64,000 bases of DNA from Gammaproteobacteria bacterium (lineage in GTDB: Bacteria; Pseudomonadota; Gammaproteobacteria; Steroidobacterales; Woeseiaceae), in NCBI GenBank assembly GCA_009937605.1, contig JAACFG010000001.1:9527-73526 (forward strand). The letters are read 5' to 3'. This document shows, piece by piece, positions 24,160 through 48,151 of this stretch (positions are counted from its first letter, which is position 1; each line of letters starts with the position of its first letter). Under the pieces are notes generated by a model. The model had not been told where the DNA came from and ran no database searches. It saw only the letters and a list, made by a program, of their open reading frames with translations. Made by a program: the position numbers and the translations under genes.

Positions 24160-24169
24160 AATCGCGCAG

Positions 24170-25072
24170 ATGAAGAGCTCAATCGTCGCCAACTTCGCGC
24201 CCGAGATCACAAGCCAGTTGCGCAACTACGGCAAGCTGATGCGTGTCGATAAACCCATCGGCACCTGGCTATTGCTGTGGCCTACGCTCTGGGCATTGTG
24301 GTTGGCGGGCGAGGGCTCGCCTGACCAGGGGCTGTTCGTGATCTTCGTTGTCGGCGTATTCGTCATGCGTTCAGCAGGATGTGTACTGAATGACTTCGTC
24401 GACCGGAAGATCGATCCGTACGTGGAACGCACACGCACGCGTCCGCTGGCGACTGGTGCCGTGGCGCCATTCGAAGCGCTGACATTGTTCGCTGCACTCG
24501 GGCTGATCGCGATCGGGCTCGCGACGATGCTCAACCCGCAGGCGCAGCTGCTCGCCGTCATCGGTGCCGTACTTACGATCGCCTACCCGTTCATCAAGCG
24601 CTATGTGTCCATCCCGCAGTTTGTGCTTGGTGCGGCCTTCGGCTGGGCGGCGCCCATGGCGTTCGCTGCGCAAACCGGCGGAACGCCGGAGCTTGCCTGG
24701 CTCGTGTTCGGCACCGCGGTGATCTGGGCGGTTATCTACGACACCTTCTACGCGATGGTGGATCGCGAGGACGACATCAAGATTGGCGTTAAATCCACGG
24801 CCGTTCTTTTCGGCGAAGTGGATCTGTTTGTCATCGCCGGTCTGCAGTTGCTCATGCTCCTGGCGCTGATACTCACGGGTTACCGCGCTGAACTCGGATT
24901 CTGGTACTACTTTTCTGTCGCAATTGCCGCCGCCATGATGGCATGGCACCTGTGGCTCGCGCGTGATCGCCAGCCAGCCGGTTGCTTCCAGGCTTTTCTG
25001 AGTAATCACCTGATTGGCATGGTGGTATTCATCGGCATCGCGCTTCACTACACATTCAATCCTGTGGTCTGA
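24170..25072 (+). CDS. ubiA: 4-hydroxybenzoate polyprenyltransferase
   Basis: Asp-rich motifs NDFVDRKIDPYVERT and YDTFYAMVDREDD. Multi-TM. Start taken at MKSSIV, because the longer ORF overlaps the recG stop. Confidence 0.85.
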   Translation: MKSSIVANFAPEITSQLRNYGKLMRVDKPIGTWLLLWPTLWALWLAGEGSPDQGLFVIFVVGVFVMRSAGCVLNDFVDRKIDPYVERTRTRPLATGAVAPFEALTLFAALGLIAIGLATMLNPQAQLLAVIGAVLTIAYPFIKRYVSIPQFVLGAAFGWAAPMAFAAQTGGTPELAWLVFGTAVIWAVIYDTFYAMVDREDDIKIGVKSTAVLFGEVDLFVIAGLQLLMLLALILTGYRAELGFWYYFSVAIAAAMMAWHLWLARDRQPAGCFQAFLSNHLIGMVVFIGIALHYTFNPVV

Positions 25073-26205: not shown

Positions 26206-29130
26206 ATGAAAAATTCAATCGCACTAGCCGGGGTGACTTCCGCCCTGGTCCTCAGTCTTGCCGTGACACCTGCCAATATTGCGCAGGCACAGGAAGCAGA
26301 GGAATTGGAAGAAGTGGTCGTTACAGGATCACGTATTCGGCGCAACCCGCTGGACGAGGCTGTAGCCATCATGGAAATCGGAGCCGACGATATTGAGAGT
26401 ACCGGCTTAACGAACCTGGCCGACGCCTTGCAGCAGTTGCCAATTTCGGGGTCGGCGATCAATTCGCAATTCAACGTTCCCGGTAACTCTGGCTTCCCAC
26501 AGGATGGCTCAGGTATCGGTGCAGGCGCTGCGCAGTTGTCAATTCGTAACGTCAGCGCGAAACGCACCCTGGTGCTTGTCGATGGCAAGCGCTGGATCGC
26601 TGGCGCTTCCGCATCGGGCGTACCGGGCGCTGTTGACCTGAATACAATTCCGGACAACGTTATTCAACGCGTTGAAGTCCTGCAGGACGGCGCGTCCGCC
26701 ATTTACGGATCGGACGCGATCGGTGGCGTCGTCAATGTCATCACAAAGCAGACCTTTGAAGGCTTCCGGCTGGATGCCCAGACCGGCAGCTATATGTCTG
26801 AAGGCGACGGTGAATCCCTTGAGCTCGCAGCGCTGTTTGGCGCCGGCAATGAGACGACGAATCTTGTTCTGAGCCTGAGCTACAAGGACGAGGGCGGTAT
26901 CGAAACGTGGGACCGTGCGCGCTCTGCGTACCCGGTACCGGACACCACGAGCTGCGACGTACCAGGCACACGCTGCTCATCCTTCACGCCGCAGGCACGC
27001 CTTATCTTCGGGCCGAACATCCCGCCAGGCGTCGGCTTCCAGGACATTACGCTGAACGACGGCGTCCTGAATGATGGCGGAGCGAATATTCCGGAATGGG
27101 ACCCCACTGATCCGGATGGTGGCGCTGACTTCCATGCGTTCTCGGCCGCTGATCGTTTTAACTACAACGGTCCGGGCTACAACTTCCTGAGGACACCGAA
27201 CGAGCGCATCAATTTCTATGCGAACGTCCGCCATGAGCTCGCACCAAACGTCACACTGTTTGCGCGCGCGTCATACACGAATCGCTCGTCAGAAACCAAG
27301 GGCGCGCCGGAACCGCTGTGTCTCGGCAACGGCTGCGGAACCCGCATTACCGATAATTTCGTAATCGGAGCGGACAATCCGTACAACTTCACCGGCCTCG
27401 AATTATCGGTAGCAAATGGCAATCTCGAGTTCTTCGGCCGCAGGCCGATCGAGTCTGGTGGCCGCCTGTTCTTCCAGGACGTCAATACCTACATGATCAC
27501 AGCGGGCCTCGAAGGCGAATTCAACGCGGCAGATCGCAACTTCTATTGGGACTTGACGGCAGGCTATGGCGACAACCGCGGCTTCCAGGAGAAGTACAAC
27601 TCGCACAATGCGGCCAAGCTCCAGGTTGCCATGGGTCCACTGGCTGTGTGCGACGCGACGCCAGGTTGTGTGCCGTTCAATTTCTTCGGTGGCCAGGGTC
27701 CGGACGGAACTGGCTCGATCACCGAGGAGATGCTCGATTTCGTGCGCTATACGCAACGCGACTACAGTGAACAGACACTAAAGAATTACGCGTTCAATAT
27801 TGGTGGCGACGTTGTCGAGTTGCCCGGTGGAACGATGGGCTTCGCAGCCGGTTTGGAATATCGCGATCACGCCGGTTCATTCCGACCTGATCCAATTGCG
27901 GCGAGCGGCGATACGGCCGGCATTCCGTCAGGTCCGACAGATGGCGGCTTCGATGTCACCGAGTTTTATGGTGAGCTGAATATTCCCCTGGTTGCAGAAG
28001 CTGCATTTGCTGACATCCTCGAAGTCAGTTTGGCGGCACGATCCTCTGACTACAGTACGTCGGGATCCAAGTCGACCTACAAGGCAAGCGCCTTGTGGCG
28101 GCCCATCGATCAGTTGGGGTTCCGAGCCTCTCTCTCGACAGGCTTCAGGGCACCGGGAATAGGTGAGCTCTTCGGCGGCGCTGCGCGTGAAGATTTCACA
28201 AAGCTCGATCCCTGTGCAGACTACACGGCCACCGAGGGTTCGGATAACGGGGGCCGTGATACACCGCAACCGGCAAATATCCAGGCGAACTGTCAAACGC
28301 TGGGCGTTGATCCCGGTCTTACGCAGATCAACCCGCAGTTGTCCGCACTGTCAACGGGCAATGCTCAGCTTGAGCCTGAGGAATCGGACAACCAGACGTT
28401 TGGTATCGTCTACAGCCCCGCTTGGTCCGAAGGCCTGGCGTGGTCTTCCGGCATGACATTCTCCATCGACTTCTACCGAGTGGAGATTACCGATGCGGTA
28501 CAGGGAATCGCCCCCGGTGATCTTATTGATGCGTGTGTCGCTACCCTCGATGATATCTATTGCGACAACACGCCGCGAACGAGTTCCGGTCAGTTGGACA
28601 CCGTTCGGAACGAGCTGCGGAACATCGGCGCAATCGACGCTTCGGGTTACGACATCATGTTCAGTTACCTGAGCCCGGAAACACGTGCCGGCGCATTCAC
28701 GCTGAGAATCGATGCGACTCACCTGAACGAGTACAAGGAATCGACCAACAATCCGGACGCCTCGATAACGGTCAACGATCTGACGGGAAGGCATCCGGAC
28801 GAGACTTTCTTCCGCGCGTTCCCCGAATGGCGCAGCGTAACAACCCTGGAATGGCTCAAGGATCGATTCACAGGTTCGCTGCGGTTCCGCTGGGTTGATG
28901 AGATGCTCCTCGACAGCGGCAGCACGCTGGATTCTGCGATGTTCACCGACTTGCGCCTGAGCTGGAACCCGGACTGGATGAGTGACGGATTTACATTCAG
29001 TGTCGGCGTGAACAACTTGTTGGATGAGGACCCACCGGTATGCGACGCATGTGGCGTGATCGGCATGAGTCCGGTCTCACACGACCTTCCGGGGCGTGTC
29101 GGCTACCTGCGATTTACCTATCAGAACTGA
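26206..29130 (+). CDS. TonB-dependent outer-membrane receptor, substrate unknown
   Basis: Signal peptide …ANIAQA. Plug (EEVVVTGSRIRRNPLD) and a long barrel with TGFRAPGIGELFGG. The C-terminus …RFTYQN lacks the usual terminal aromatic residue. Confidence 0.85.
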   Translation: MKNSIALAGVTSALVLSLAVTPANIAQAQEAEELEEVVVTGSRIRRNPLDEAVAIMEIGADDIESTGLTNLADALQQLPISGSAINSQFNVPGNSGFPQDGSGIGAGAAQLSIRNVSAKRTLVLVDGKRWIAGASASGVPGAVDLNTIPDNVIQRVEVLQDGASAIYGSDAIGGVVNVITKQTFEGFRLDAQTGSYMSEGDGESLELAALFGAGNETTNLVLSLSYKDEGGIETWDRARSAYPVPDTTSCDVPGTRCSSFTPQARLIFGPNIPPGVGFQDITLNDGVLNDGGANIPEWDPTDPDGGADFHAFSAADRFNYNGPGYNFLRTPNERINFYANVRHELAPNVTLFARASYTNRSSETKGAPEPLCLGNGCGTRITDNFVIGADNPYNFTGLELSVANGNLEFFGRRPIESGGRLFFQDVNTYMITAGLEGEFNAADRNFYWDLTAGYGDNRGFQEKYNSHNAAKLQVAMGPLAVCDATPGCVPFNFFGGQGPDGTGSITEEMLDFVRYTQRDYSEQTLKNYAFNIGGDVVELPGGTMGFAAGLEYRDHAGSFRPDPIAASGDTAGIPSGPTDGGFDVTEFYGELNIPLVAEAAFADILEVSLAARSSDYSTSGSKSTYKASALWRPIDQLGFRASLSTGFRAPGIGELFGGAAREDFTKLDPCADYTATEGSDNGGRDTPQPANIQANCQTLGVDPGLTQINPQLSALSTGNAQLEPEESDNQTFGIVYSPAWSEGLAWSSGMTFSIDFYRVEITDAVQGIAPGDLIDACVATLDDIYCDNTPRTSSGQLDTVRNELRNIGAIDASGYDIMFSYLSPETRAGAFTLRIDATHLNEYKESTNNPDASITVNDLTGRHPDETFFRAFPEWRSVTTLEWLKDRFTGSLRFRWVDEMLLDSGSTLDSAMFTDLRLSWNPDWMSDGFTFSVGVNNLLDEDPPVCDACGVIGMSPVSHDLPGRVGYLRFTYQN

Positions 29131-30166: not shown

Positions 30167-30238
30167 GCGCCAGACGGTGCCGGGACTAGACTGTGCCCGA
30201 TGATCCGAGTAAACCCCAAGGTGCTAGACTTCCCCAGC

Positions 30239-30922
30239 ATGGAGAAGGACACGGCACAGTATGAAGCGATTCGTCGTCACTACCTGTTTTCAGGTCTCGA
30301 CGAAGACGTTTTCGATGCGCTCGCGGCCGACATCACGGTTGAAGCCTACGACAAAGGCGAGGTGCTGTTTCATCGAGGCGACCCGGCGCAGGCTTTCTTC
30401 TTCATCGAGACTGGCCACGTCGAGCTGAGCCTGATATCTCCCGACGGCCAAAAGAAGACCGTCGAGGTCATCGACCACGACCGAACCTTCGCCGAGGCGT
30501 TGGTGTTCATACGCTCGGGCAAATTTCCGGTCAGTGCCGAAGCGCTGACAGCCACCGTCGTCTATCGAATCCCGAACGACCCGTACCGGACCCTGCTGCA
30601 CAACAACAACGATGCCTGCATGCGCCTGCTCAGTGACGTCTGCCGCCACTTGCACCAGCGCGTCCAGGAAATCGAGCAGCTGACCATCCAGAACGCACGA
30701 AGCCGGCTGTCCAGCTACCTGATCGACCATGCCACCGAGGTCGATGACGACGAGGCGACCATACGCCTTGACCTGCCCAAGCACGTCATCGCATCACGTC
30801 TGTCGATTACGCCCGAGACCCTGTCACGGCTTCTCCGCGTGATGTCCGAGGAGGGCATCCTGACGGTCGACGATCGCCTCATCTTTGTCCACAGCCTCGC
30901 GAGACTGCGCCCCTACGACTGA
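30239..30922 (+). CDS. dnr: Crp/Fnr-family regulator of the Dnr/NnrR (NO-responsive) type
   Basis: cNMP-like domain plus a C-terminal HTH with the E--SR recognition motif (ITPETLSRLL). It lacks the N-terminal Cys cluster of FNR. From memory, it aligns in length and layout with P. aeruginosa Dnr. Start chosen at MEKD; the tracked ORF starts at 30200. Confidence 0.75.
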   Translation: MEKDTAQYEAIRRHYLFSGLDEDVFDALAADITVEAYDKGEVLFHRGDPAQAFFFIETGHVELSLISPDGQKKTVEVIDHDRTFAEALVFIRSGKFPVSAEALTATVVYRIPNDPYRTLLHNNNDACMRLLSDVCRHLHQRVQEIEQLTIQNARSRLSSYLIDHATEVDDDEATIRLDLPKHVIASRLSITPETLSRLLRVMSEEGILTVDDRLIFVHSLARLRPYD

Positions 30923-30945: not shown

Positions 30946-31017
30946 GGAGACCGTGGGCCAGCGAGTTCAGGATGTTGTCGTATAGGCCGCATTGTGCATG
31001 GCTACAGCAGATCGCTT

Positions 31018-31203
31018 ATGAGCATCGTCTATTTCACGCTGGTTGCAGCCCTTCTGTACCTTTTTTCGGACTGGGTACTGCAGCGCGTCGAAGTTGCCGT
31101 GGGCCGGCGCTTCGAGCACCGGTCGCTCATCTTCTTCGCCATCCTGCTGACGCTCGCGCTCACCAGTTTTTCGCTGCTTGGCAACATTACAGGCAGCGCC
31201 TAG
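31018..31203 (+). CDS. Small two-TM membrane protein (unknown), first ORF of the operon
   Basis: MSIVYFTLVAALLYLFSDWVL…SLIFFAILLTLALTSFSLL has two clear hydrophobic helices. Start is uncertain (30994 or 31018). Confidence 0.45.
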   Translation: MSIVYFTLVAALLYLFSDWVLQRVEVAVGRRFEHRSLIFFAILLTLALTSFSLLGNITGSA

Positions 31204-31229
31204 AGAAGCAGGACAAGGGAGGCAAAGAA

Positions 31230-31406
31230 ATGTCTGACCATAACGAAGAAGTCGACGACAACACTCCGGACAATGAGCCGATTCCGCTGATGCAACGGGT
31301 GCTGGATAACCCGTTCCTCCTGCTGTTCTTAGGGATCGCGGTGCCGACGGTCTTTTATCTCATCTGGGGCATCATCGAAATCACCCAGATTCCGATCGCC
31401 GACTGA
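31230..31406 (+). CDS. Small single-TM protein with acidic N-terminus (possible accessory oxidase subunit)
   Basis: RBS-like gggagg upstream. MSDHNEEVDDNTPDNEPIPLMQRVLDNPFLLLFLGIAVPTVFYLIWGIIEI. Its position immediately before subunit II recalls small subunits such as ba3 IIa or CcoQ, which is an inference. Confidence 0.5.
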   Translation: MSDHNEEVDDNTPDNEPIPLMQRVLDNPFLLLFLGIAVPTVFYLIWGIIEITQIPIAD

Positions 31407-31425: not shown

Positions 31426-31959
31426 ATGGCTATAACACCACCGAGTGAACGGATCTGGTGGAAGGAACCGATCGCAAAGATCGAGCTCTCCTGGATCATC
31501 ATTGCCTTCACATGGGGCCTCATCATGTTCTTCATGATGATCTACTGGCACGGGGCTGGTGAACAGAACCTCTCCAATGAGGCGTACAAGATCAAACCCG
31601 AACGTTTTGCCGAGCACACCCAGGAAATGATTGACGCCTACACAGTGCGCAATGAGAGCGGTTTTCCGGTCGTGCATCCGCCGGCTGGCGACGATATCTA
31701 CCTGACGGGCCGCCTGTATAACTGGTGGCCGATACTCGAGCTGGAGAAAGACCAGACCTACCGCCTGCACCTGTCGTCGACCGATGTGCAACACGGCTTT
31801 TCGTTACAGCCTGTGAACATCAACGTCCAGGTGCACCCGGGCTATGACCTGGTCTTCACGATCAAGCCGGACAGGGCGGGCGAGTACGGCATCGTCTGTA
31901 ACGAATTCTGCGGGATCGGCCACCACCTGATGGTCGGCAAGATCTACGTCGTCGAGTAG
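31426..31959 (+). CDS. Heme-copper oxidase-family subunit II with one TM segment, a cupredoxin domain and an intact CuA site (NorY-like)
   Basis: H123 (VQHGFS) plus C158-N-E-F-C162-GIG-H166-HL-M169 is the complete CuA ligand set. 177 aa with one N-terminal TM segment. The small size is typical of B-family-type subunit II. Confidence 0.85.
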   Translation: MAITPPSERIWWKEPIAKIELSWIIIAFTWGLIMFFMMIYWHGAGEQNLSNEAYKIKPERFAEHTQEMIDAYTVRNESGFPVVHPPAGDDIYLTGRLYNWWPILELEKDQTYRLHLSSTDVQHGFSLQPVNINVQVHPGYDLVFTIKPDRAGEYGIVCNEFCGIGHHLMVGKIYVVE

Positions 31960-31971
31960 GGGAGTACGAAC

Positions 31972-33666
31972 ATGTCAAATAACACAGAATTTCGCACTTG
32001 CCCGACAACCGGCCTCAAGGTTGACCTGGCGGCTGAAAAGCTGATCAAGGTCAACGCAGTGGCCGCCGTCGTGTTCCTCGCAATCGGTGGGCTCTTCGGC
32101 CTGCTCGTCGCGCTGACGCGCTGGCCCGAGGTGCACTTGCTGCCAGCCGATTTCTTCTACCTGGCCCTGACCGCTCACGGTCTCGACGTCCTGCTGGTCT
32201 GGATCATCTTCTTCGAGATGGCCGTACTCTATTTCGCGTCGGCCGTTCTGCTGGGCAGTCGCCTGGCCGCCCCCAAGTTTGCGTGGGCGGGCTTTGTGCT
32301 AATGCTCGTCGGCGCAGTGATTACGAATATCGTCGTCCTGCAGGGCAAATCGAGCGTGATGTTTACGTCCTATGTACCATTGAAAGCCGAACCGGGCTTT
32401 TATCTCGGCATCATCCTGTTCGCCGTCGGTGCTTTGATCGGCTGCTTCGTGTTCTTCGCCACGCTGGTTGTGGCGCGCCAGGAACGAACCTACCAGGGGT
32501 CGATACCTCTGGTGACGTTTGGCGCCATGACGGCCGCTATCATTGCCGTCTTTACTATCGCATCCGGCGCGATCATCCTGATCCCGACGCTGCTCTGGTC
32601 CCTGGGCTACGTGGCCAACATCGACCCGATTCTCTATAAGACCATCTGGTGGGCCATGGGACACTCGTCGCAGCAAATCAACGTCGCTGCGCACGTGTCC
32701 ATCTGGTACGCGATTGCTGCCATGACCTTCGGCGCCAAACCACTGTCCGAGAAAGTCAGCCGCATGGCGTTTCTGATGTACATCCTGTTCCTGCAGATCG
32801 CCAGTGCTCACCACATGCTGGTGGAACCCGGGTTCAGCTCGGAATGGAAGATCTTCAACACGAGTTACGCCATGTACCTGGCCGTCCTCGGCAGCATGGT
32901 CCATGGCATGACCGTTCCCGGTTCGATCGAAGCGGCCCAGCGCTCGCGCGGCCTGAACAAGGGTATGTTCGAGTGGCTGCGCAAAGCGCCGTGGGGCAAC
33001 CCGGCGTTTGCCGGCATGTTCATGTCGCTCGTGTTCTTCGGGTTTATCGGCGGTATCTCCGGCGTGGTCATGGGAACCGAGCAGATCAACCTGATCATGC
33101 ACAACACGCTCTACGTTCCAGGTCACTTCCATGGCACTGTTGTGGCAGGCACGACGCTCGCGTTCATGGCGATCACCTATTACCTGGTGCCGCTGATCTT
33201 CCGCCGTGAGCTCATGTTCATGAAGCTGGCGAAGCTGCAGCCGTATGTGTTCGGTATCGGTGTTGCCGGCATCTCGGTATTCATGATGGGCGCCGGCACA
33301 CTTGGCGTTTCCCGCCGTCACTGGGACATGCAGTTCGCCGATGCGGTCCTGCCATTCGACTACCCCTCTGCCGCGTTCCTGATGATGGGTCTCAACGGTA
33401 TGTCAGCGGTACTCGCGGCGGTCGGCGGCATCATGTTTGTCGTTGTAGTGGTCGGTTCCGTGTTCTTCGGCCGCAAACTGGAGAAGGACGAGAAGCCGAG
33501 CTATCCGGAAGTGCCACCGCAATCCGCGGCGGTTGCCCAGCACGGCAGCGCTGAGTCCCTGAAGATTCCGGGCACGACGATGCTCGTCGCGATCTTCTTC
33601 ATCGCCTTTGTGCTGTACTACTTCGTTAACTGGAAATACCTGTCGGAGATCTGGCCTCTGAGCTAG
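31972..33666 (+). CDS. Heme-copper oxidase-family subunit I, B-family-like, lacking the cross-linked Tyr (NorS/sNOR-like candidate nitric oxide reductase)
   Basis: All six canonical His are present: H69 (LTAHG), H231 (WWAMGH), H280/H281 (ASAHHM) and H385/H387 (PGHFHG). The H+4 position is Gln235 (HSSQQ), where ba3 has HPIVY. Confidence 0.8.
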   Translation: MSNNTEFRTCPTTGLKVDLAAEKLIKVNAVAAVVFLAIGGLFGLLVALTRWPEVHLLPADFFYLALTAHGLDVLLVWIIFFEMAVLYFASAVLLGSRLAAPKFAWAGFVLMLVGAVITNIVVLQGKSSVMFTSYVPLKAEPGFYLGIILFAVGALIGCFVFFATLVVARQERTYQGSIPLVTFGAMTAAIIAVFTIASGAIILIPTLLWSLGYVANIDPILYKTIWWAMGHSSQQINVAAHVSIWYAIAAMTFGAKPLSEKVSRMAFLMYILFLQIASAHHMLVEPGFSSEWKIFNTSYAMYLAVLGSMVHGMTVPGSIEAAQRSRGLNKGMFEWLRKAPWGNPAFAGMFMSLVFFGFIGGISGVVMGTEQINLIMHNTLYVPGHFHGTVVAGTTLAFMAITYYLVPLIFRRELMFMKLAKLQPYVFGIGVAGISVFMMGAGTLGVSRRHWDMQFADAVLPFDYPSAAFLMMGLNGMSAVLAAVGGIMFVVVVVGSVFFGRKLEKDEKPSYPEVPPQSAAVAQHGSAESLKIPGTTMLVAIFFIAFVLYYFVNWKYLSEIWPLS

Positions 33667-33673
33667 GCAAATA

Positions 33674-34468
33674 ATGGATTATTTCCGTTTGCTTGTAGTC
33701 GTTTGTATCGTGGCCGGCGTTTCTGCCGGCCACGCTGCGACTGGGGCGCAGTCATACGACCGCAAAGACGCGCTCGAGATCAGCCAGGGCGCCATCGGGC
33801 GTGAACTCGACAACTACTCGCTGCGTGACGTCGATGGACAACCGTTTGACCTGGCACGGTTTCGTGGCAAGCCGCTGGTCATCAGTATGATTTACACAAG
33901 CTGTTACCACATCTGCCCGACGATTACCCGCAACCTCGGCGATACTATCGACGTCGCCCAGGAAGCGCTGGGTGAAGATGCGTTCTCCGTAATCACGGTG
34001 GGCTTCGACTGGAAAGTAGACACCCCGGAGCGCATGCGCAGTTTTGCCGCGGGCCTCGGTATGGATGACGTCCCGAACTGGCACTTTCTCGCGACCGAAG
34101 CACTTGTCGTCGACAAGCTAAGCGAAAACCTTGGCTTTTTGTTCTACCCCAGTGCGAAGGGCTTCGATCACCTGGCACAGGCAACCGTCATCGATGCTGA
34201 AGGCGAGATCTATCGCCAGGTGTATGGCGTCGACGTCGAGACCACAGCGATTGTCGAGCCACTCAAGGAACTTGTGTTCAACACACCACGAAGTGCCGGG
34301 TTCATCGAGCACTGGATGAGCACCTTCAGACTGTTCTGCACGGTTTACGATCCGAACAGCGACCGTTATCGCTTCGACTACTCCATTTTCATGGCGATAA
34401 TCGTCGGCGTCCTGTGTCTCGGCATGGTCGCCATATTCATCATCAGGGAATGGCGGCACGCACGCTAG
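33674..34468 (+). CDS. senC: SCO1/SenC-family copper chaperone with an additional C-terminal TM anchor
   Basis: Signal or anchor at the N-terminus. Thioredoxin-fold CxxxC (CYHICP) and a downstream His (GFDHLAQATVID). C-terminal hydrophobic FMAIIVGVLCLGMVAIFII. Confidence 0.8.
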   Translation: MDYFRLLVVVCIVAGVSAGHAATGAQSYDRKDALEISQGAIGRELDNYSLRDVDGQPFDLARFRGKPLVISMIYTSCYHICPTITRNLGDTIDVAQEALGEDAFSVITVGFDWKVDTPERMRSFAAGLGMDDVPNWHFLATEALVVDKLSENLGFLFYPSAKGFDHLAQATVIDAEGEIYRQVYGVDVETTAIVEPLKELVFNTPRSAGFIEHWMSTFRLFCTVYDPNSDRYRFDYSIFMAIIVGVLCLGMVAIFIIREWRHAR

Positions 34469-34475
34469 GAACGAT

Positions 34476-36011
34476 ATGGCATTGATCAAACGTGCCCTGG
34501 CACGCGCGTTCACCAGGTGCGAGGCGGTATTCGAGTACGCGTTCGGCCAGCGAAACAACCCTTTCGTCTGGCTGGGAGCGCTCGGCTGGTATTTCTACTG
34601 GATCGTCGCAGCTACCGGCGTCTACCTGTATATCTTCTTTGACACTGGCGTCACTGATGCCTATGCGTCGGTCGAGTACATCACCAACGAACAGTGGTAC
34701 GCGGCCGGCTTGATGCGCAGCCTGCACCGCTACGCATCCGATGCCCTGGTCGTCGTCATTGTCCTGCACATCTTCCGTGAGTTCGCCCATGATCGCCTGC
34801 GTGGCAGGCGCTTTTTTGCCTGGCTGACCGGCGTGCCGCTGCTCGCCTTTATCTACATCTGCGGCATCAGTGGCTACTGGCTGGTGTGGGACCAACTGGC
34901 ACAGTACATAGCAATAGCAACCACCGAGTGGCTCGACACCTTACCCATGTTTGGTGAGCCCATCGCCAATAACTTCCTCAACAACACCACGCTCGGCGGC
35001 CGCTTCTTCACGCTGATGGTATTCATTCATATCTTTGGGCCGCTGTTCATGCTGCTGTTGATGTGGGTACACATCCAGCGGCACTCCGGCGCGCGGGTGA
35101 ACCCGCCCAAAGAACTGGCAATCGGCACAATGGTCATGCTCGTGGTGCTGTCATTTGTTTACCCGGCCGTCAGCCAGGGTCCGGCCGACCTCGACTTGGT
35201 GCCGACGGACGTCGGACTCGACTGGTTCTACCTCGCTGCGTATCCATTGCTCGACATTGTGCCTGGCGGGCAGCTCTGGCTGTATATCGTCGGTGGCCTC
35301 GTGTTGCTGGCACTGCTTCCCTGGGCGCCACCCGCTAAGCCCGTCAAACCTGCCCTGGTCAATCTCGACAATTGCAACGGCTGTACGCGTTGCTTCGACG
35401 ACTGCCCGTTCGGCGCCATTTCCATGGTGCCGCGTAGTGACGGACGCGCCTATGATGTTGAGCCGGTCGTCAACGCCGCAAACTGCACCAGTTGCGGCAT
35501 ATGTGCCGGATCCTGCCCGACGTCCACACCGTTCCGGCGCGCGGTCCCGATCCAGCCCGGTATCGAACTGCCCGATCGAACGATCGGCGCCTTACGTGAA
35601 GAACTCATTGCGGAACCGGACACAGAAGCCGCGGGACCGCGGGTACTCGTCTTCGGCTGCGACACGAGCAATGTCGATGAATTGCACGGGGACGGCACGC
35701 GCGTGATCAAGCTGCCGTGCGTCGGCATGCTGCCGCCATCTTTCGTCGACTTTGCCCTGTCGCGCCGCTTCGCGGACGGCGTCATGATTGCCGGCTGTGC
35801 CGAGTGCGACTGCTACCATCGCCTGGGCAACGAATGGACCATGGCTCGCATGGCGGGCGAGCGAGATCCATATCTGCGCAAGCGCGTAGATACGCGCCGT
35901 CTGTCATTGAACTGGTTGCCGCGCAATGCGGGACGCCGGCGCAGAAAGGCCCTTGAGGCGTTCCACTCGGCGTTGGCCGGCATTGACCTGAAGGAGACAG
36001 ACGATGAATAG
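34476..36011 (+). CDS. Fusion protein: cytochrome b (N-terminal, di-heme-like) + 2x[4Fe-4S] ferredoxin + MvhD/FlpD-like domain
   Basis: Cytochrome b-like His pairs (RSLHRYASDALVVVIVLHIFREF; FFTLMVFIHIFGPLFMLLLMWVHIQRH). CNGCTRCFDDCP and CTSCGICAGSCP cluster motifs. C-terminal FGCD…KLPCVGML…ADGVMIAGCAECDCYH matches the hydrogenase delta-subunit-like domain. Confidence 0.8.
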   Translation: MALIKRALARAFTRCEAVFEYAFGQRNNPFVWLGALGWYFYWIVAATGVYLYIFFDTGVTDAYASVEYITNEQWYAAGLMRSLHRYASDALVVVIVLHIFREFAHDRLRGRRFFAWLTGVPLLAFIYICGISGYWLVWDQLAQYIAIATTEWLDTLPMFGEPIANNFLNNTTLGGRFFTLMVFIHIFGPLFMLLLMWVHIQRHSGARVNPPKELAIGTMVMLVVLSFVYPAVSQGPADLDLVPTDVGLDWFYLAAYPLLDIVPGGQLWLYIVGGLVLLALLPWAPPAKPVKPALVNLDNCNGCTRCFDDCPFGAISMVPRSDGRAYDVEPVVNAANCTSCGICAGSCPTSTPFRRAVPIQPGIELPDRTIGALREELIAEPDTEAAGPRVLVFGCDTSNVDELHGDGTRVIKLPCVGMLPPSFVDFALSRRFADGVMIAGCAECDCYHRLGNEWTMARMAGERDPYLRKRVDTRRLSLNWLPRNAGRRRRKALEAFHSALAGIDLKETDDE

Positions 36012-36495
36012 ACTCGTACAGGTCGTCCTCTACGCCGCATTTGCGGTGGGCATCGGGTACTTCTCCCTGTCGCCGCCGTACCAGTATGCGGACGAGGAGA
36101 TGGCGTCGATCAAGCTGTCACTCAGCCACGCCGCCAAGCGCGTCGAAGACTGCGTCAAGCTGACACCCGACGAAATCAACAGGCGCGCCCTCGCAGGCGA
36201 GCCGATATCCGAGTGTGGCCGCGAACGCCTGCCGCTGACGATCGAGCTGGAGATAGACGGAGTCATCGTGTTCCGCGATGAGCCGCTGCCGTCAGGCCTG
36301 TGGAGCGACGGCCCGGCATCGGTCTACGAGCGCTTCGAGCTTGCACCCGGCCCCCACATTATTACCGCCAGGCTTCGCGATACCGCGCGCGAGCATGGCT
36401 GGGATTACTCACACAGTGACGAGGTAGTGCTCTTGCCCGGGCGCTATTTCTCGATTACGTTCCGGGCCGAGACGGGAGGTTTCAGGTACCGATGA
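36004..36495 (+). CDS. Hypothetical membrane-anchored protein
   Basis: 8-nt overlap with the upstream gene and an ATGA overlap with the hemerythrin gene. N-terminal TM segment (VVLYAAFAVGIGYF). No recognisable motif. Confidence 0.6.
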   Translation: MNRLVQVVLYAAFAVGIGYFSLSPPYQYADEEMASIKLSLSHAAKRVEDCVKLTPDEINRRALAGEPISECGRERLPLTIELEIDGVIVFRDEPLPSGLWSDGPASVYERFELAPGPHIITARLRDTAREHGWDYSHSDEVVLLPGRYFSITFRAETGGFRYR

Positions 36496-36884
36496 CTTTA
36501 ATAGCCTGGAGAAACGAGTTCAGCGTCGGTGTCGATGCGGTCGATCATGAGCATCGCGAGATGATTGCGCTAATCAATGAGCTCGACGAAGCGATGCAGG
36601 ACGACGCCAGCCAGGCGACCGTCGTCGAAGCACTTGGTGAAATTTATGCCCGGATCTCAGCCCACTTCGCGCTCGAGGAAAAGACGATGCGCGATGCGCG
36701 CTACAGCCAGCTTGCCGAGCACAAGCAGGACCACGAGCAGCTACTCGATGAGCTGCTCGATGTGATTGACAGTGTCGACGATGAAGGCCGCTACGATCGA
36801 GCGGACTTGTCGAGGAGCCTCGACCGCTGGTTTTCGGACCACTTTCGAACACACGATGCCAGGCTGCATCACGAGTTAGGTTGA
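36492..36884 (+). CDS. Bacteriohemerythrin-like di-iron protein
   Basis: Hemerythrin ligand pattern: VDHEHREM, HFALEE, HKQDHEQL, FSDHFRTHDARL. 130 aa. Confidence 0.85.
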   Translation: MTLIAWRNEFSVGVDAVDHEHREMIALINELDEAMQDDASQATVVEALGEIYARISAHFALEEKTMRDARYSQLAEHKQDHEQLLDELLDVIDSVDDEGRYDRADLSRSLDRWFSDHFRTHDARLHHELG

Positions 36885-37008: not shown

Positions 37009-41368
<4,360 letters not shown>

Positions 41369-41430
41369 GTACTTTCCCATGACTCGGGCAGTTCGAATAC
41401 TGAATTGTCCCCCTTTGGTGCGCGGCAACC

Positions 41431-43026: not shown

Positions 43027-43257
43027 GCTCTTGTTAAATAAGATTTAATCTCAACAAGAATCCGGGGCTCAGCATTGCATGGCTGTCGCGATTTCAGTAA
43101 ACTGCGCGAGCTTTTTTGACCGGCACGGCGGTCAAACCGGCCGAAAAGCGAATCTCCGGCATGACCGGGCCAGCAGGACGCTGGCGATCCCAGTATTCGC
43201 GACTTCCGGAAATTGAAATGATTGCGATCGTGGCGACGGTTGCAGGGTGGACAAGTA

Positions 43258-45648
43258 ATGATACGAAAATCGTTCCTGAGCCTGGTGGGCCTGGTTCTGG
43301 CAAGCACGGCGAAAGCCGACTGGGCGCTCAACATGCCCAGGGGCGTAACCGATCTCAGCGTCGAGACGTTCGAACTGCACATGATGGTCTTCTGGTGGTG
43401 CGTTGCCATCGGGGTCGTCGTTTTCGGCGTCATGATCATCTCGCTGTTCAAGCACAGAAAGTCGAAAGGCGCGGAACCTGCGTCGTTCTCTCACAGTACG
43501 GTTGCGGAGGTCATCTGGACGGCGATTCCCGTTGTCATACTGCTGATCATGGCGGTGCCGGCAGCGGAGACGATGATCCGGCTCGAAGATTCCCGCGACC
43601 CTGATATATCCATCGTGGTCACGGGCTACCAATGGAAGTGGCACTACAAATACCAGGACGAAGGCATTGAGTTCTACTCGAGCCTCGCGCGCCCGAGCCT
43701 GGCCGCCCGTCCGAAGCAATCGGGCGTCGACGTGAACAGCGTTGAGAACTACCTGCTTGAAGTTGACCGCCCCCTGGTCGTGCCGAGGGGCGCAAAAGTT
43801 CGCGTGCTGCTGACATCAAATGACGTCATCCACTCGTGGTGGGTTCCTGATTTGGCAATCAAGAAAGACGCTATTCCAGGCATCGTTAACGAAACCTGGT
43901 TCAACGCCAATGAAACCGGCACTTTTCGCGGCCAGTGCGCCGAGTTGTGCGGCAAGGATCACGGCTACATGCCGGTCGTTGTCGAAGTGGTTGAGCCCGA
44001 GGCCTACCAGGCCTGGGTCAACACCCACAGTGATGGCGAAGAAAGACTCGCCAGCACACACGACGCACACGCCGCGGACCACGACGAACATGGCCCCGAG
44101 AAGGGCATCAAGCGCTGGTTGTTCTCAACCAACCACAAAGACATTGGCACGATGTACCTCATCTTCAGCCTCGTCATGTTCTTTGTTGGCGGCGCAATGG
44201 CGATGGTCATTCGCTCGGAACTAGCTGTCCCGGGCCTGCAATTCGTTCATCCGGAGTTCTTCAACTCGATGACCACGATGCACGCTTTGATCATGGTCTT
44301 CGGCGCAGTAATGCCGGCCTTCGTTGGCCTCGCCAACTGGATGATCCCGCTGATGATCGGCGCACCCGACATGGCGCTGCCACGCATGAACAACTGGTCG
44401 TTCTGGATCCTGCCGGTCGCGTTCGGCATCCTGCTTTCGACGCTCCTTATGCCGGGCGGCGCTCCTGCCAGTGGCTGGACGATGTACCCGCCGCTCGTCC
44501 TTCAGACCGGCGATGCGTTCCCGTTCCTGATTTTCTCCGTCCACCTGATGGGCATCTCGTCGATCATGGGCTCCATCAACGTGATCGTGACGATCATCAA
44601 CATGCGCGCGCCTGACATGACGCTGCTCAAGATGCCGATGTTTGTGTGGACCTGGCTGATTACCGCGTATCTGTTGATCGCCGTGATGCCGGTACTGGCT
44701 GGCGCGGTTACCATGCTGCTGACCGACCAGTTCTTCGGCACGAGCTTCTTCCTCGCGGCCGGCGGTGGCGATCCCGTCATGTTCCAGCACATCTTCTGGT
44801 TCTTCGGGCACCCCGAGGTCTACATCATGATTCTGCCGGCCTTCGGTGTCGTATCAGAAATCATCCCGACGTTCTCGCGCAAGAAACTGTTCGGTCACGA
44901 CTCGATGGTATACGCGGCATCGTGTATCGCATTCCTGTCGTTCATCGTCTGGGCGCACCACATGTTCACGGTGGGCATGCCGTTAACGGGCCAGCTGTTC
45001 TTCATGTTCGCGACAATGCTCATCGCTGTTCCGACCGGTGTGAAGATTTTCAACTGGGTTGCGACGATGTGGCGCGGCTCGATGACGTTCGAGACGCCGA
45101 TGCTGTTCTCGCTGGCATTCGTCTTCCTGTTCACAATCGGTGGTTTCTCCGGCCTGATGCTCGCGATCCAGCCAGCGGATGTGCAGTACCACGACAGCTA
45201 TTTCGTTGTGGCTCACTTCCACTACGTACTGGTCCCGGGTTCGGTCTTCGCGATCATGGCGGGCGCCTACTACTGGCTCCCGAAGTGGACCGGCCATATG
45301 TATAACGAGGGTCTCGGCAAGCTGCACTTCTGGACCTCGACGATCTTCGTGAACCTCACGTTCTTCCCAATGCACTTCCTTGGGCTGGCCGGCATGCCGC
45401 GTCGTATCCCGGACTACTCAACCCAGTTCACGGACTTCAACACGATCGCCAGTGTCGGCGCCATTGGCTTCGGCCTGTCGCAATTGCTGTTCGTGCTTGT
45501 GATTTTGACCGCAAAGAAGGGCGCCAAGGCGACCGACCGGGTTTGGGAAGGTTCGCACGGTCTCGAATGGACGGTACCGTCGCCGGCGCCGTGGCACACG
45601 TTTACGACGCCGCCGAAAGCGCGCATCGCTAACGAATCTTTCGAGTAG
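43258..45648 (+). CDS. aa3-type cytochrome c oxidase subunit II and subunit I encoded as one uninterrupted ORF
   Basis: N-terminal part: signal peptide, 2 TM segments and CuA (HSWWVPDL…CAELCGKDHGYM). From about residue 270: STHDAHAADHDEHGPEKGIKRWLFSTNHKDIGTMYL… is a full CoxA. I verified codon by codon that there is no stop between them (43981-44160). Confidence 0.8.
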   Translation: MIRKSFLSLVGLVLASTAKADWALNMPRGVTDLSVETFELHMMVFWWCVAIGVVVFGVMIISLFKHRKSKGAEPASFSHSTVAEVIWTAIPVVILLIMAVPAAETMIRLEDSRDPDISIVVTGYQWKWHYKYQDEGIEFYSSLARPSLAARPKQSGVDVNSVENYLLEVDRPLVVPRGAKVRVLLTSNDVIHSWWVPDLAIKKDAIPGIVNETWFNANETGTFRGQCAELCGKDHGYMPVVVEVVEPEAYQAWVNTHSDGEERLASTHDAHAADHDEHGPEKGIKRWLFSTNHKDIGTMYLIFSLVMFFVGGAMAMVIRSELAVPGLQFVHPEFFNSMTTMHALIMVFGAVMPAFVGLANWMIPLMIGAPDMALPRMNNWSFWILPVAFGILLSTLLMPGGAPASGWTMYPPLVLQTGDAFPFLIFSVHLMGISSIMGSINVIVTIINMRAPDMTLLKMPMFVWTWLITAYLLIAVMPVLAGAVTMLLTDQFFGTSFFLAAGGGDPVMFQHIFWFFGHPEVYIMILPAFGVVSEIIPTFSRKKLFGHDSMVYAASCIAFLSFIVWAHHMFTVGMPLTGQLFFMFATMLIAVPTGVKIFNWVATMWRGSMTFETPMLFSLAFVFLFTIGGFSGLMLAIQPADVQYHDSYFVVAHFHYVLVPGSVFAIMAGAYYWLPKWTGHMYNEGLGKLHFWTSTIFVNLTFFPMHFLGLAGMPRRIPDYSTQFTDFNTIASVGAIGFGLSQLLFVLVILTAKKGAKATDRVWEGSHGLEWTVPSPAPWHTFTTPPKARIANESFE

Positions 45649-46310: not shown

Positions 46311-47180
46311 ATGACCACTCACACAGACGAACATTATTACGTCCCACACGGCAGCCACTGGCCCGTTGTCGGCTCAATCGGCCTGCTGTTCCTGATGACT
46401 GGCGTATCAAGCTGGTTGAACGGCGCGGATTTTGGCTTCTACGTAATGCTGGTGGGCTTTGCCATACTCATCTTTATGATTACTGGCTGGTTCGGCACGG
46501 TGATCGGCGAAAGCCAGAGCGGTCTGTACAACGCACAGGTAGACAAGTCTTTCCGTCAGGGCATGTTCTGGTTCATCTTCTCGGAGGTCATGTTCTTCGC
46601 GGCCTTCTTCGGCGCGCTGTTCTACGCACGCAATATGTCGATTCCCTGGCTTGGCGGCGACAGCAACAACTTTTTTACAAACCTGCTCTTGTGGGAAGGC
46701 TACGAAAGCACCTGGCCGACCAACGGCCCGGGGAACGTTGGCGGAGAATACGAGATAATGCCGCCGTTCGGCCTGCCGCTGATCAACACGGCGCTGCTGC
46801 TAACGTCATCGATCACGGTGACGATCGCACACCACGCACTGATCGAGGGCAGGCGTGCGCAGCTGAAGCTGTTCCTCGCTGCCACGTTCCTGCTTGGCTT
46901 CATATTCGTCTACCTGCAAGGCGTCGAGTACATCCATGCCTACCAGGACCTGAACCTGAAGCTCACGTCAGGCATCTACGGATCGACGTTCTTCATGCTG
47001 ACCGGCTTCCACGGCATGCACGTGACGATTGGCGCCATCATGCTGACGATCATGTTCTTCCGTGTATTGAAGGGGCACTTCACAGCGGAGAACCATTTCG
47101 CGTTCGAGGCTGTCGCCTGGTACTGGCACTTTGTCGACGTTGTCTGGATCGGCCTGTACGTCTTCGTCTACTGGATGTAA
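46311..47180 (+). CDS. coxC: Cytochrome c oxidase subunit III
   Basis: 289 aa, 7 TM segments. TGFHGMHVTIGAIML and WYWHFVDVVW motifs. Confidence 0.9.
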   Translation: MTTHTDEHYYVPHGSHWPVVGSIGLLFLMTGVSSWLNGADFGFYVMLVGFAILIFMITGWFGTVIGESQSGLYNAQVDKSFRQGMFWFIFSEVMFFAAFFGALFYARNMSIPWLGGDSNNFFTNLLLWEGYESTWPTNGPGNVGGEYEIMPPFGLPLINTALLLTSSITVTIAHHALIEGRRAQLKLFLAATFLLGFIFVYLQGVEYIHAYQDLNLKLTSGIYGSTFFMLTGFHGMHVTIGAIMLTIMFFRVLKGHFTAENHFAFEAVAWYWHFVDVVWIGLYVFVYWM

Positions 47181-47416: not shown

Positions 47417-48151
47417 TTGGACAGGGGCGGGCAGTATATCGTGAACACCGGGACGAAAAAGCAACTGCCGAGCTGGCTTCCGCTCGTCGTCGGCGCGCTG
47501 CTCGTCGCCCAGTTCGCCGGGCTGGGCGCCTGGCAAATCAGCCGCGGGCTCGAGAAACGAGCGGACCAACAGATGTTCCGCGATGAGACCGGATTCGCCT
47601 CCTGGCATGATGGCATGGAAGTCCGGCCGTTCCAGCGAATCAAAGCAACCGGCAGCTACGATGGCGCCCACCAGGTACTGCTCGAGAACATTATCGTTAA
47701 CAGCCGCTATGGCTACTACGTGATCACGCCATTGGTCGGTCTCGATGGCGAGCCCGTTCTGCTCGTCAACCGCGGCTGGATCGAGAAGACCACTGAACCG
47801 CTGGACATGACGCGCCTCGACGTTCCACCCGGGCGCGTGACAGTGCGTGGCCGGGCGGGATCACTACCACGAGCCGGAATGAAGATGGGCGAAGCCTTCC
47901 GGCCCGGGCAGGATTGGCCGATGGAGGCTGTCTATCCATCGACAGAGGAGGTAGCCGTGGCGCTCGGCACCGACGTCCAGCCATTTGTCCTGCTTATGGA
48001 TCATGAGGAAGACAGCGGCTTCTTCCGTCACTGGGTGCCGACCGAGTTCGGTCCTGGCAAGCACTTCGGCTACGCGCTGCAGTGGTTTGCCATGGCCGCT
48101 GTCCTGTCCGGCCTCCTGGCCTGGAACTACCGTAAGAAGCGCTTCAAGTAA
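47417..48151 (+). CDS. SURF1-family cytochrome oxidase assembly protein
   Basis: N-terminal TM segment followed by GLGAWQISRGLEKR (the SURF1 'WQ..R' motif), and a C-terminal TM segment YALQWFAMAAV. The start is TTG 47417 or GTG 47441. Confidence 0.8.
   Translation: MDRGGQYIVNTGTKKQLPSWLPLVVGALLVAQFAGLGAWQISRGLEKRADQQMFRDETGFASWHDGMEVRPFQRIKATGSYDGAHQVLLENIIVNSRYGYYVITPLVGLDGEPVLLVNRGWIEKTTEPLDMTRLDVPPGRVTVRGRAGSLPRAGMKMGEAFRPGQDWPMEAVYPSTEEVAVALGTDVQPFVLLMDHEEDSGFFRHWVPTEFGPGKHFGYALQWFAMAAVLSGLLAWNYRKKRFK

Follow-up and report, generated by a model that had tools for sequence, protein, structure and literature searches.

Reductases of the eNOR type are among the commonest nitric oxide (NO) reductases in nature, and so are a major biological source of N2O (Murali et al. 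2024). They are recognised by a Gln at the position of the cross-link Tyr (PMC8756737, after Hemp & Gennis 2008), and the enzyme of R. marinus, the only eNOR for which NO reductase activity and heme As are shown, is a bona fide NO reductase without O2 reduction (PMC11214002). The sNOR/bNOR enzymes of Bacillus and nitrifiers have Asn in place of this Tyr, and senC is followed in their clusters by a gene for a protein of ~190 aa with six transmembrane (TM) helices (PMC3475470). Here we describe a gene of an eNOR cluster that lies at positions 34476-36011 (+) of a 64,000-nucleotide stretch (the window) of contig JAACFG010000001.1, assembled from a gammaproteobacterium of the family Woeseiaceae. 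Its product, referred to below as the b-FeS protein, is by its sequence a membrane di-heme cytochrome b wired to cytoplasmic iron-sulphur (FeS) redox modules, and is likely a dedicated eNOR-associated transmembrane redox module.

Genes of this kind have been noticed before in a single organism. A preprint of May 2026 on Ferrigenium straubiae described the cytochrome b/FeS genes of one eNOR operon as 'rather unusual' (bioRxiv 10.64898/2026.01.22.701106). The operon contains eNOR II, eNOR I, heme o synthase, sco1, a protein with cytochrome b, [Fe-S], FAD and NADH parts, a 'scaffold', PerM and a cytochrome b with [Fe-S]; the preprint treats the cytochrome b genes as features of one genus and possible markers, and proposes flow from quinol to NAD+. 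Its 'Cytbc1CCC-like protein 2' (IMG 2878407323) and 'protein 1' (2878407319) come from the same operon type as the b-FeS protein and are likened to it here by description; protein 1 corresponds, again by description, to the Fer2-FNR variant treated below. The preprint mentions neither a FlpD domain nor a fusion to SenC or to the downstream module u163, and no family-wide linkage to eNOR. A paper on Chloroflexi eNOR lists one protein with cytochrome b6, DMSOR_beta-like, FlpD and cytochrome c domains, in an appendix table and with no comment. In the literature searched we found no family-wide or phylum-spanning linkage, MvhD domain, u163 module or fusion, SenC fusion or argument on direction such as those given here; nothing was found there on an MvhD-cytochrome b fusion with a heme-copper enzyme or sNOR, and only the Ferrigenium preprint surfaced, under eNOR. 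The preliminary description of the locus, made from the letters of the window, had called the electron route undescribed. This is largely true, save that the Ferrigenium preprint had noted such genes in one eNOR operon.

The open reading frame (ORF) at 34476-36011 starts with ATG, ends with TAG and encodes 511 aa arranged in three modules. The first is a bc-type di-heme cytochrome b with helices A-F (aa 1-290; 34476-35345, +), recognised by Pfam, alignment with b6 and Foldseek. Cytochrome_B (PF00033) matches aa 33-200 at 1.8e-19, with 70.8 bits against a cut-off of 27.2, Cytochrom_B_N_2 (PF13631) matches at 2.6e-12 (47.5 bits), and a sequence search of the PDB returned spinach cytochrome b6 (6rqf_I, 4.9e-22) for the N-terminal part. 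The second, a cytoplasmic 2x[4Fe-4S] ferredoxin domain (aa 291-366; 35346-35573, +), is matched by Fer4-family models, of which Fer4_7 (PF12838) and Fer4_9 (PF13187) both exceed their Pfam cut-offs on aa 299-350. The third is an MvhD/FlpD-like domain (aa 367-511 plus stop; 35574-36011, +), matched by FlpD (PF02662) on aa 407-500 at 3e-12 (47.1 bits against a cut-off of 22.3) and by MvhD in the PDB search (5odc_D, 7e-8; 1.1e-8 in the alignment used to map the cysteines). The cytochrome b, ferredoxin and FlpD domains had all been proposed in the preliminary description, and all three lie above the curated Pfam cut-offs.

The cofactor ligands of these domains can be placed residue by residue. H84/H98 and H185/H199, at a spacing of 13 residues per pair and in the positions of helices B and D, align with the heme ligands of b6, with H84/H185 as ligands of the heme on the positive (P) side and H98/H199 as those on the negative (N) side. 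The ferredoxin domain holds two CxxCxxCxxxCP motifs (C300/303/306/310-P311 and C337/340/343/347-P348). Both the b/b6-like His spacing and the two motifs are as first read from the letters, while the Cys pattern of MvhD, claimed at the same time for the C-terminus, is matched only partly: C415, C441 and C446 align with the MvhD cysteines of MCSG, GGC and DCH, and the N-terminal Cys-rich loop of MvhD is reduced to a single residue, C395. By analogy with MvhD, module 3 probably binds one more FeS cluster, a [2Fe-2S]. Conservation was assessed in an alignment of 106 diverse relatives with 22-58% identity to the alignment's first sequence. The four heme-ligand His are kept in 105-106/106 relatives, and the whole set of four His, eight ferredoxin Cys and C395/C415/C441 in 104-106/106; C446 is found in 82/106. 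Since the ligands, C446 excepted, are retained in 104-106 of the 106 relatives, the architecture is selected and not a product of chance. Two acidic residues lie in the P-side pocket, D139 of the cd-helix 'WD' (106/106) and D249 of the PEWY-like motif 'LDWFY' (105/106). The N-side face carries the conserved Arg residues R112 and R202, and no Qi-type residue is conserved in this alignment.

Hydropathy and the positive-inside rule give the protein six TM helices, with N and C termini inside. Short K/R-rich loops (HDRLRGRR and HIQRHSGARVNPPKE) lie on one side and long acidic loops on the opposite one, the ef loop on the P side having 0 K/R and 5 D/E. All solved structures of bc1 and b6f place the N-terminus of cytochrome b on the N side. 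The ferredoxin and FlpD domains are therefore predicted to be cytoplasmic, as FeS domains lacking a Tat signal should be. An AlphaFold2 (AF2) model of a fused relative (P0121, 57% identical) has a mean predicted local distance difference test score (pLDDT) of 94.3 and a predicted template modelling score (pTM) of 0.93. Foldseek aligns the first ~285 residues of this model with full-length bc1 cytochrome b over 285-320 columns at a TM score of ~0.55, a match that takes in helices A-F and, with them, the ef region, which forms the Qo pocket. After FlpD the model has a seventh TM helix and then an all-beta domain. The side on which the FeS and MvhD domains lie, raised in the preliminary description as a matter for prediction, is the cytoplasm according to both the predicted topology and this high-confidence model. 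The segment LDWFYLAAYPLLDIVPGG of the b-FeS protein is the counterpart of the PEWYFLFAYAILRSIPNK region of cytochrome b.

The nearest relatives of the membrane part are the cytochromes b of bc1 and b6f, with which it shares the fold of helices A-F and the four His for two b hemes; the cd-helix 'WDQ' is shared with b6 and the ef-loop 'LDWFY' is PEWY-like. Unlike bc1/b6f, the b-FeS protein has no helices G/H and no conserved Qi-site residues, no Rieske protein or cytochrome c1/f is co-encoded, its N-side face continues covalently into FeS domains, and it is tied genetically to a terminal reductase instead of the general respiratory chain. The Pfam listings of the window cluster and 11 related loci contain no Rieske or cytochrome c1/f family, and no cytochrome c gene other than NirS is present in the cluster listings. 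NarI-NarH, HdrE-HdrD, DsrM-DsrK and QmoC likewise use two b hemes to join a P-side site to cytoplasmic FeS clusters. However, the NarI-type cytochrome b fold is unrelated, and those systems run quinol electrons inwards to a known cytoplasmic catalytic site, whereas here the cytochrome is of the bc type and no cytoplasmic catalytic subunit is encoded.

The C-terminal half invites another comparison, with MvhD and the C-termini of HdrA2 and QmoB, which have in common with it the FlpD domain, three aligned Cys and the ferredoxin+MvhD pair as a unit. The C-terminus of the NCBIfam model HdrA2 (NF040770) covers that pair (aa 293-506) but scores 72 bits, where its cut-off is 1100. In NCBI and JGI, proteins of this kind bear the product name 'hydrogenase iron-sulfur subunit', and the FlpD match and the partial similarity to HdrA2 would suit such a role. 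The name, however, was transferred from one domain only and the HdrA2 score lies far below its cut-off, and no hydrogenase, HdrABC or Qmo gene was found in ~90 neighbourhoods. The b-FeS protein also differs from MvhD systems in having no HdrA flavoprotein, hydrogenase or Qmo partner, one Cys for the N-terminal Cys loop, a membrane cytochrome b fused to it, and hosts that are aerobic or denitrifying Proteobacteria and not methanogens or sulfate reducers. We give the hydrogenase reading almost no credence: genomic context effectively rules it out, and the name is a domain-transfer artefact. This misnaming extends to thousands of database entries, which are called either 'hydrogenase iron-sulfur subunit' or 'F420-reducing hydrogenase delta subunit'.

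The identity of the neighbouring enzyme is what places the b-FeS protein. The preliminary description had recognised a CuA-type neighbour, and a CuA heme-copper oxidoreductase (HCO) is confirmed; that it is an NO reductase of the eNOR type had been missed. Subunit I (31972-33666, +; PF00115 1.6e-67) is a B-family-related HCO, matching T. thermophilus ba3 at 6.6e-48, whereas A-family enzymes match at ~1e-10. The His sextet is retained, with His at the HH and HxH motifs, and subunit I has Gln in place of the cross-link Tyr (Y237 of ba3) in the sequence 'GHSSQQIN'. Because this change from Tyr to Gln matches the published eNOR diagnostic, the b-FeS gene belongs to an eNOR cluster, and on sequence grounds we take the neighbouring HCO to be an eNOR and not a generic oxidase. 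Subunit II (31426-31959, +) consists of one TM helix and a CuA cupredoxin domain with the CuA motif CNEFCGIGHHLM, and is partially matched by PF00116 and TIGR02866. Between subunit I and the b-FeS gene lies a SCO1/SenC copper chaperone (33674-34468, +; PF02630 4.2e-14) with the CxxxC motif 'CYHIC', directly upstream of the b-FeS gene at a gap of 7 nt. A cytochrome cd1 nitrite reductase, NirS (37009-39150, -; Cytochrom_D1 2.4e-147), is convergent with the operon and is the predicted source of NO for the eNOR.

The same position, directly after senC in the cluster of a CuA-type NO reductase, is taken by cbaD, the 'orf1' of norSY-senC-orf1 clusters. In N. europaea the order according to a transcriptome supplement is NE0684 norS, NE0683 norY, NE0682 senC and NE0681, which is unnamed. 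Unlike the b-FeS protein, cbaD has ~190 aa, six TM helices and no FeS domains, and its HCO has Asn for Tyr (PMC3475470). We considered a reading of the window as an sNOR cluster of this type, with the b-FeS protein as 'orf1', and rejected it: the HCO has Gln and not Asn, and the gene product is a cytochrome b-FeS protein of 511 aa.

Linkage was measured from relatives of the b-FeS protein outward to neighbouring genes. When one genome of each GTDB species was scanned with a sequence pattern, at least 590 genomes proved to carry a relative. In the survey of loci, which comprised the best 80 plus others and located homologues of the window genes by phmmer, subunit I, subunit II and SenC were present in 70/70 loci with at least 3.6 kb upstream, and the linked subunit I read H[SA][SA]QQ[IV]N at all 70 loci where the motif was readable. 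SenC adjoined the relative in 83/84 loci, u163 was present in 81/84, and a bacteriohemerythrin was found in 77/84 proteobacterial loci, being absent from distant clusters (L083-L086). Genes within the flanks included a NirS-like gene in 24/87 loci and a homologue of the Crp/Fnr regulator in 23/87. Distant members, with 29-40% identity and from Thermodesulfobacteriota, SAR324 and unassigned metagenome contigs, had SenC adjacent in all four lineages, and COX1 adjacent in all but one, in which the contig ends just upstream. The linkage survives rearrangement, as one distant cluster has convergent orientation. An identical cluster is carried by the plasmid NZ_CP156080.1 of a Defluviimonas sp. isolate, where it bears generic names only and the HCO is mislabelled as cbb3-type. 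A link to one HCO family, as opposed to random neighbours, had been raised in the preliminary description, and it is this link that is found at 70/70 informative loci and in four distant lineages. On such conserved context, the b-FeS protein is probably the dedicated electron-transfer or maturation partner of eNOR.

The b-FeS protein had been described as a three-module protein, and the three domains stand, but the functional unit adds the overlapping downstream ORF u163, and SenC. Here u163 (36004-36495, +), recognised by fusion homology and AF2, is a separate gene encoding an N-terminal TM helix and a periplasmic Ig-like beta-sandwich. There is an overlap of 8 nt between it and the stop of the b-FeS gene, whose 3' end contains the Shine-Dalgarno sequence AAGGAG. 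About half of the family carries u163 in the same chain as the b-FeS protein. Longer relatives of ~690-720 aa have a C-terminal extension homologous to u163, which has 41% identity to the extension of P0121 (7e-38) and 27% to that of a Thermodesulfobacteriota member (5e-15). An offline phmmer classification of the 150 best cluster representatives found cytochrome b, Fer4, FlpD and u163 in one chain in 57/150, and the three-module form in 52/150. The AF2 model of u163 has one TM helix and an all-beta domain (pLDDT 94.3), and because the helix follows the cytoplasmic FlpD domain, the beta domain is placed in the periplasm. No Pfam family matched u163 at E <= 0.01, FixG_C included, and a Foldseek search of its model against the PDB returned only generic Ig-like, CARDB and CBM20 beta-sandwiches (best E 9e-3). 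The 106-relative alignment shows no conserved set of Cys, His or Met ligands in u163, and when the representatives and close homologues examined were searched for a periplasmic domain with c-type heme, CxxCH occurred nowhere but in the ferredoxin motifs. As a beta-sandwich without redox ligands, it is probably a docking or structural domain. Its product name is 'hypothetical protein' in all sources checked.

Cytochrome b domains of the same type (45-48% identical and with the same LDWFYL motif) recur in other fusions. One variant joins the cytochrome b to [2Fe-2S] Fer2, FAD_binding_6 and NAD_binding_1 (P0176), another to a diflavin module of flavodoxin, FAD_binding_1 and NAD_binding_1 (P0161). 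In a third, SenC is N-terminal to cytochrome b and Fer4 in one chain (P0237), and a fourth consists of cytochrome b and u163 alone, without an FeS module (P0228). As the cytochrome b is fused to differing modules, the P-side half of these proteins is constant and the cytoplasmic half interchangeable. The sister variants stand directly after SenC, with P0228 two genes further on, and the two variant contigs that reach upstream (L088, L090) have clusters with HCO genes. Variant clusters sometimes add a Fer4-FlpD copy, PCuAC, CtaG, NnrS or a COX1-like protein. Three clusters of the Ferrigenium type (L088 1695-10484, L090 4521-9732, and L089) carry two cytochrome b paralogues each, one of them cytochrome b-Fer2-FNR or cytochrome b-diflavin and the other cytochrome b with u163 but no FeS module, or a Fer4-FlpD copy; these clusters also carry the COX1-like 'scaffold' protein, PCuAC, CtaG and NnrS.

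The flavin-bearing variants bear on the direction of electron flow. In NOX, FRE, phthalate dioxygenase reductase and CPR, NAD(P)H-flavin modules of these two types take electrons from NAD(P)H and deliver them to an acceptor, and transfer from quinol (~+90 mV) to NAD(P)+ (-320 mV) would be ~400 mV uphill and against the membrane potential. Flow from cytoplasm to periplasm is favoured for these reasons, and the quinol-to-cytoplasm direction put forward in the preliminary description is not the best supported one. The sister variants share the logic of NOX/FRE, in which cytoplasmic NAD(P)H passes electrons through flavin and two b hemes to an outside acceptor; the eukaryotic FRE/STEAP metalloreductases are NADPH-flavin-heme b systems of this kind. 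The b-FeS protein has FeS input modules where NOX/FRE-type reductases have flavin, and differs from them in having no Pfam match to the ferric-reductase domain.

Our preferred reading, which we put forward tentatively, is that the b-FeS protein and u163 form an eNOR-associated transmembrane wire from a cytoplasmic reductant to the periplasmic face, where the most likely acceptor would be the CuA of eNOR. A cytoplasmic low-potential donor, such as a ferredoxin-like partner, would reduce the MvhD-type cluster, while in the sister variants the donor would be NAD(P)H through the fused flavin module. The two [4Fe-4S] clusters would relay the electrons to the inner heme b, and this to the outer one. 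To judge from the placement of their ligands, this chain of candidate cofactors probably spans the membrane. From the outer heme the electrons would reach the CuA of subunit II at the periplasmic face, either directly or through a quinone in the Qo-like pocket, and eNOR would use them to reduce the NO made by the adjoining NirS. The seventh helix, provided by u163, would return the chain to the periplasm and end in the beta-sandwich. We infer the direction of flow, the donor, the acceptor and the occupancy of the cofactor sites from these comparisons. The CuA of eNOR is proposed as acceptor because the link is exclusive to eNOR and not shared by other CuA oxidases that use Sco; the aa3 cluster of the window encodes a CuA oxidase with no cytochrome b-FeS partner of this sort. 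With regard to an alternative donor, no Rieske or cytochrome c gene is present in the cluster listings, NirS excepted. In keeping with the model, the likely homologue in Ferrigenium, compared by description only, was found in the proteome during denitrifying Fe(II)-oxidising growth. Supply of eNOR from a cytoplasmic reductant would resemble the NO detoxifiers that draw on NAD(P)H, Hmp and NorVW. It would be roughly electroneutral overall if the protons used by eNOR come from the cytoplasm.

Several points weigh against outward supply to CuA. The R. marinus eNOR reduces NO with N,N,N',N'-tetramethyl-p-phenylenediamine (TMPD)/ascorbate as donor (PMC11214002), so that catalysis in vitro can do without the partner, and the same paper mentions no cytochrome b, ferredoxin or FlpD partner. 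The Ferrigenium preprint gives scores (units not stated) of 26.2 and 23.9 for the cytochrome b-like proteins, 31.6 for eNOR I/II and 24.7 for Sco1, levels that look more like those of an accessory factor than of a stoichiometric subunit. The gene is placed after the assembly genes for heme o synthase and SenC, and the NAD(P)H variant of L088 sits among copper-chaperone genes. The strict conservation of D139 and D249 suggests a quinone site, a feature just as compatible with quinol oxidation. For the FlpD domain no cytoplasmic donor was identified, and outward electron flow dissipates membrane potential.

Some of these observations would suit a maturation reductase, an explanation that we regard as possible but doubtful. 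Here too electrons would run from cytoplasm to periplasm, but for the assembly of the CuA, and perhaps the FeB, of eNOR: the protein would act as a metal reductase, on Cu(II) to give Cu(I) or on Fe(III) to give Fe(II), or would maintain SenC/Sco thiols in the reduced state. Its closest working analogues would be CcoG and the eukaryotic FRE/STEAP metalloreductases. It would account for a gene directly downstream of SenC in 83 of 84 loci that follows heme o synthase and SenC and is not adjacent to the structural genes, for the chain in which SenC, cytochrome b and Fer4 are fused, for the diflavin variant embedded among PCuAC (LpqE-like), CtaG and SenC in L088, and for protein and transcript levels in Ferrigenium that resemble Sco1 and not eNOR I/II. 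The acidic P-side loops, including the ef loop, are in keeping with it, as is an overall layout resembling that of CcoG, which Marckmann and colleagues are said to have described in PNAS in 2019 as the cupric reductase of cbb3 oxidase assembly. CcoG has TM helices, two cytoplasmic [4Fe-4S] clusters and a periplasmic Ig-like beta domain, like the b-FeS protein with u163, and also serves an HCO, but the likeness is one of layout only, and there is no Pfam match to FixG_C. A generic role in CuA assembly, moreover, fails to explain the exclusive link to eNOR, because other CuA enzymes accompanied by Sco (the aa3 of the window, ba3 and sNOR/bNOR) do without such a protein. Nor does u163 have a conserved Cys/His/Met metal site, a FixG_C domain or a copper-chaperone fold; a chain of five cofactors is heavy for an assembly factor, and the one reported relative with a c-type cytochrome domain, RME88945.1, fits respiratory electron transfer better.

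Conservation of the P-side pocket raises the opposite direction, inward oxidation of quinol to a cytoplasmic sink, which together with a Qo-type bifurcation we consider unlikely. Quinol would be oxidised at the Qo-like pocket and its electrons passed through the two hemes and the FeS chain to a cytoplasmic acceptor, e.g., the hemerythrin, in a redox loop generating proton-motive force like NarI-NarH, HdrE-HdrD, DsrM-DsrK and QmoC. The cd-helix 'WD', the PEWY-like 'DWFY' and helices E/F are kept in 105-106/106 members and in all variants, hemerythrin is co-encoded in 77 of 84 loci, and the best NCBIfam matches are the quinol-linked ExtP (NF040969, 91.5 against a cut-off of 290) and ExtQ (NF040970, 22 against 150), the b-FeS protein falling below both cut-offs. 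The Ferrigenium preprint itself proposes a 'quinol:NAD+ oxidoreductase' supercomplex. This reading has difficulties, however, in that the NAD(P)H-flavin variants would run uphill as well as against the membrane potential, the distant clusters L083-L086 lack hemerythrin, and there is no gene for a cytoplasmic catalytic partner, HdrA-like or other. In the most radical form of the reading one electron would go to the CuA of eNOR and the other to a low-potential FeS or NAD(P)+ branch. Such Qo-type bifurcation without a Rieske protein, with the first electron of quinol passing to CuA and the second through the b hemes to the FeS/MvhD or flavin module, would be pulled by the very exergonic reduction of NO to N2O; we judge it highly improbable. 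In favour of the inward reading, CuA has a midpoint potential similar to that of a Rieske cluster. Against it, no Rieske-type first acceptor is encoded, and no bc-type Qo site is known to work without one.

The outcome matters for how denitrification is understood, and the b-FeS protein is a concrete candidate for the electron-input or maturation machinery of eNOR. If the module feeds eNOR from a cytoplasmic reductant, as we tentatively prefer, NO reduction would bypass the quinone pool, bc1 and cytochrome c, the energetics assumed in denitrification models would change, and the tie of eNOR to 'aerobic denitrifiers' and NO detoxification would be explained. If bifurcation were true, NO respiration would yield reduced ferredoxin or NAD(P)H, a new energy coupling in denitrification, and would offer autotrophs, Fe(II) oxidisers for example, a route to reverse electron flow. 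The gene could also serve as a marker of eNOR clusters, for which mislabelling as cytochrome oxidases is itself routine.

The remaining genes of the operon lie at its two ends. A single-TM small subunit of 58 aa (31230-31406, +), conserved in relatives and an analogue of ba3 IIa / cbaC, is encoded upstream of subunit II. It has a strong Shine-Dalgarno sequence, AAGGGAGG, upstream and sits inside a longer ORF (30972-31406, 144 aa), of which the conserved product is the 58-aa peptide and not the 144-aa ORF. The peptide is probably the equivalent of the third, small subunit that ba3-type enzymes possess; relatives have a gene for 58-64 aa upstream of subunit II, and often a second peptide, of 60-64 aa, further upstream. 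A Crp/Fnr-family regulator (30200-30922, +; cNMP_binding and HTH_Crp_2) is encoded upstream of the cluster. A search for FNR/Dnr boxes returned 2 matches, with 1.6 expected, and both lie away from the operon; a scan for promoters and terminators gave no informative signal. The last gene of the operon encodes a bacteriohemerythrin (36492-36884, +; NF033749 98.7 bits, above cut-off), a cytoplasmic di-iron protein that binds O2/NO, and overlaps u163 by 4 nt. It may act as a sensor or buffer of NO/O2, as an iron donor, or as the cytoplasmic partner of the FlpD domain.

Further features of the locus were recorded. The SenC protein is hydrophobic at both ends, with an N-terminal anchor and a C-terminal segment IFMAIIVGVLCLGMVAIFII, and has a conserved-looking FCTVYDPNSDRYRFDYS stretch before the second hydrophobic segment, both unusual for a Sco protein. 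NirS has 713 aa and carries, N-terminal to its cd1 domain, two additional domains of the cytochrome c type (Cytochrom_C, aa 52-134; Cytochrome_CBB3, aa 205-279), which could act as periplasmic electron carriers near eNOR. Most relatives have heme o synthase between subunit I and SenC, in a gap of ~0.9 kb (e.g., L001, L087). It is absent from this position, 33666-33674, in the window, whose only heme o synthase (48727-49638) lies in the aa3 cluster. A true UbiA, a 4-hydroxybenzoate octaprenyltransferase (332 bits), is encoded at 24128-25072, and the organism therefore makes ubiquinone. The aa3 cluster contains an 808-aa ORF (43222-45648, +) with CoxB (aa 47-267; TIGR02866, 195 bits) and CtaD (aa 299-799; TIGR02891, 680 bits) and no stop between them, an apparent fusion of subunits II and I or a sequencing artefact, with COX3, SURF1 and heme o synthase downstream (46311-47180, 47417-48151 and 48727-49638).

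One locus of the survey (L020, CAWKAE010000009.1) is labelled 'uncultured Halobacteria archaeon' and has a cluster 58% identical to that of the window, which suggests mis-binning or recent transfer. TonB-dependent receptors at 26206-29130 (+) and 39188-41428 (-) flank the eNOR/NirS locus. The receptor on the NirS side is conserved in two other loci (L002, L006), and another (L001) has a FecCD/ABC set for iron or heme uptake nearby; the TonB receptors near eNOR/NirS may reflect a link to metal or heme supply.

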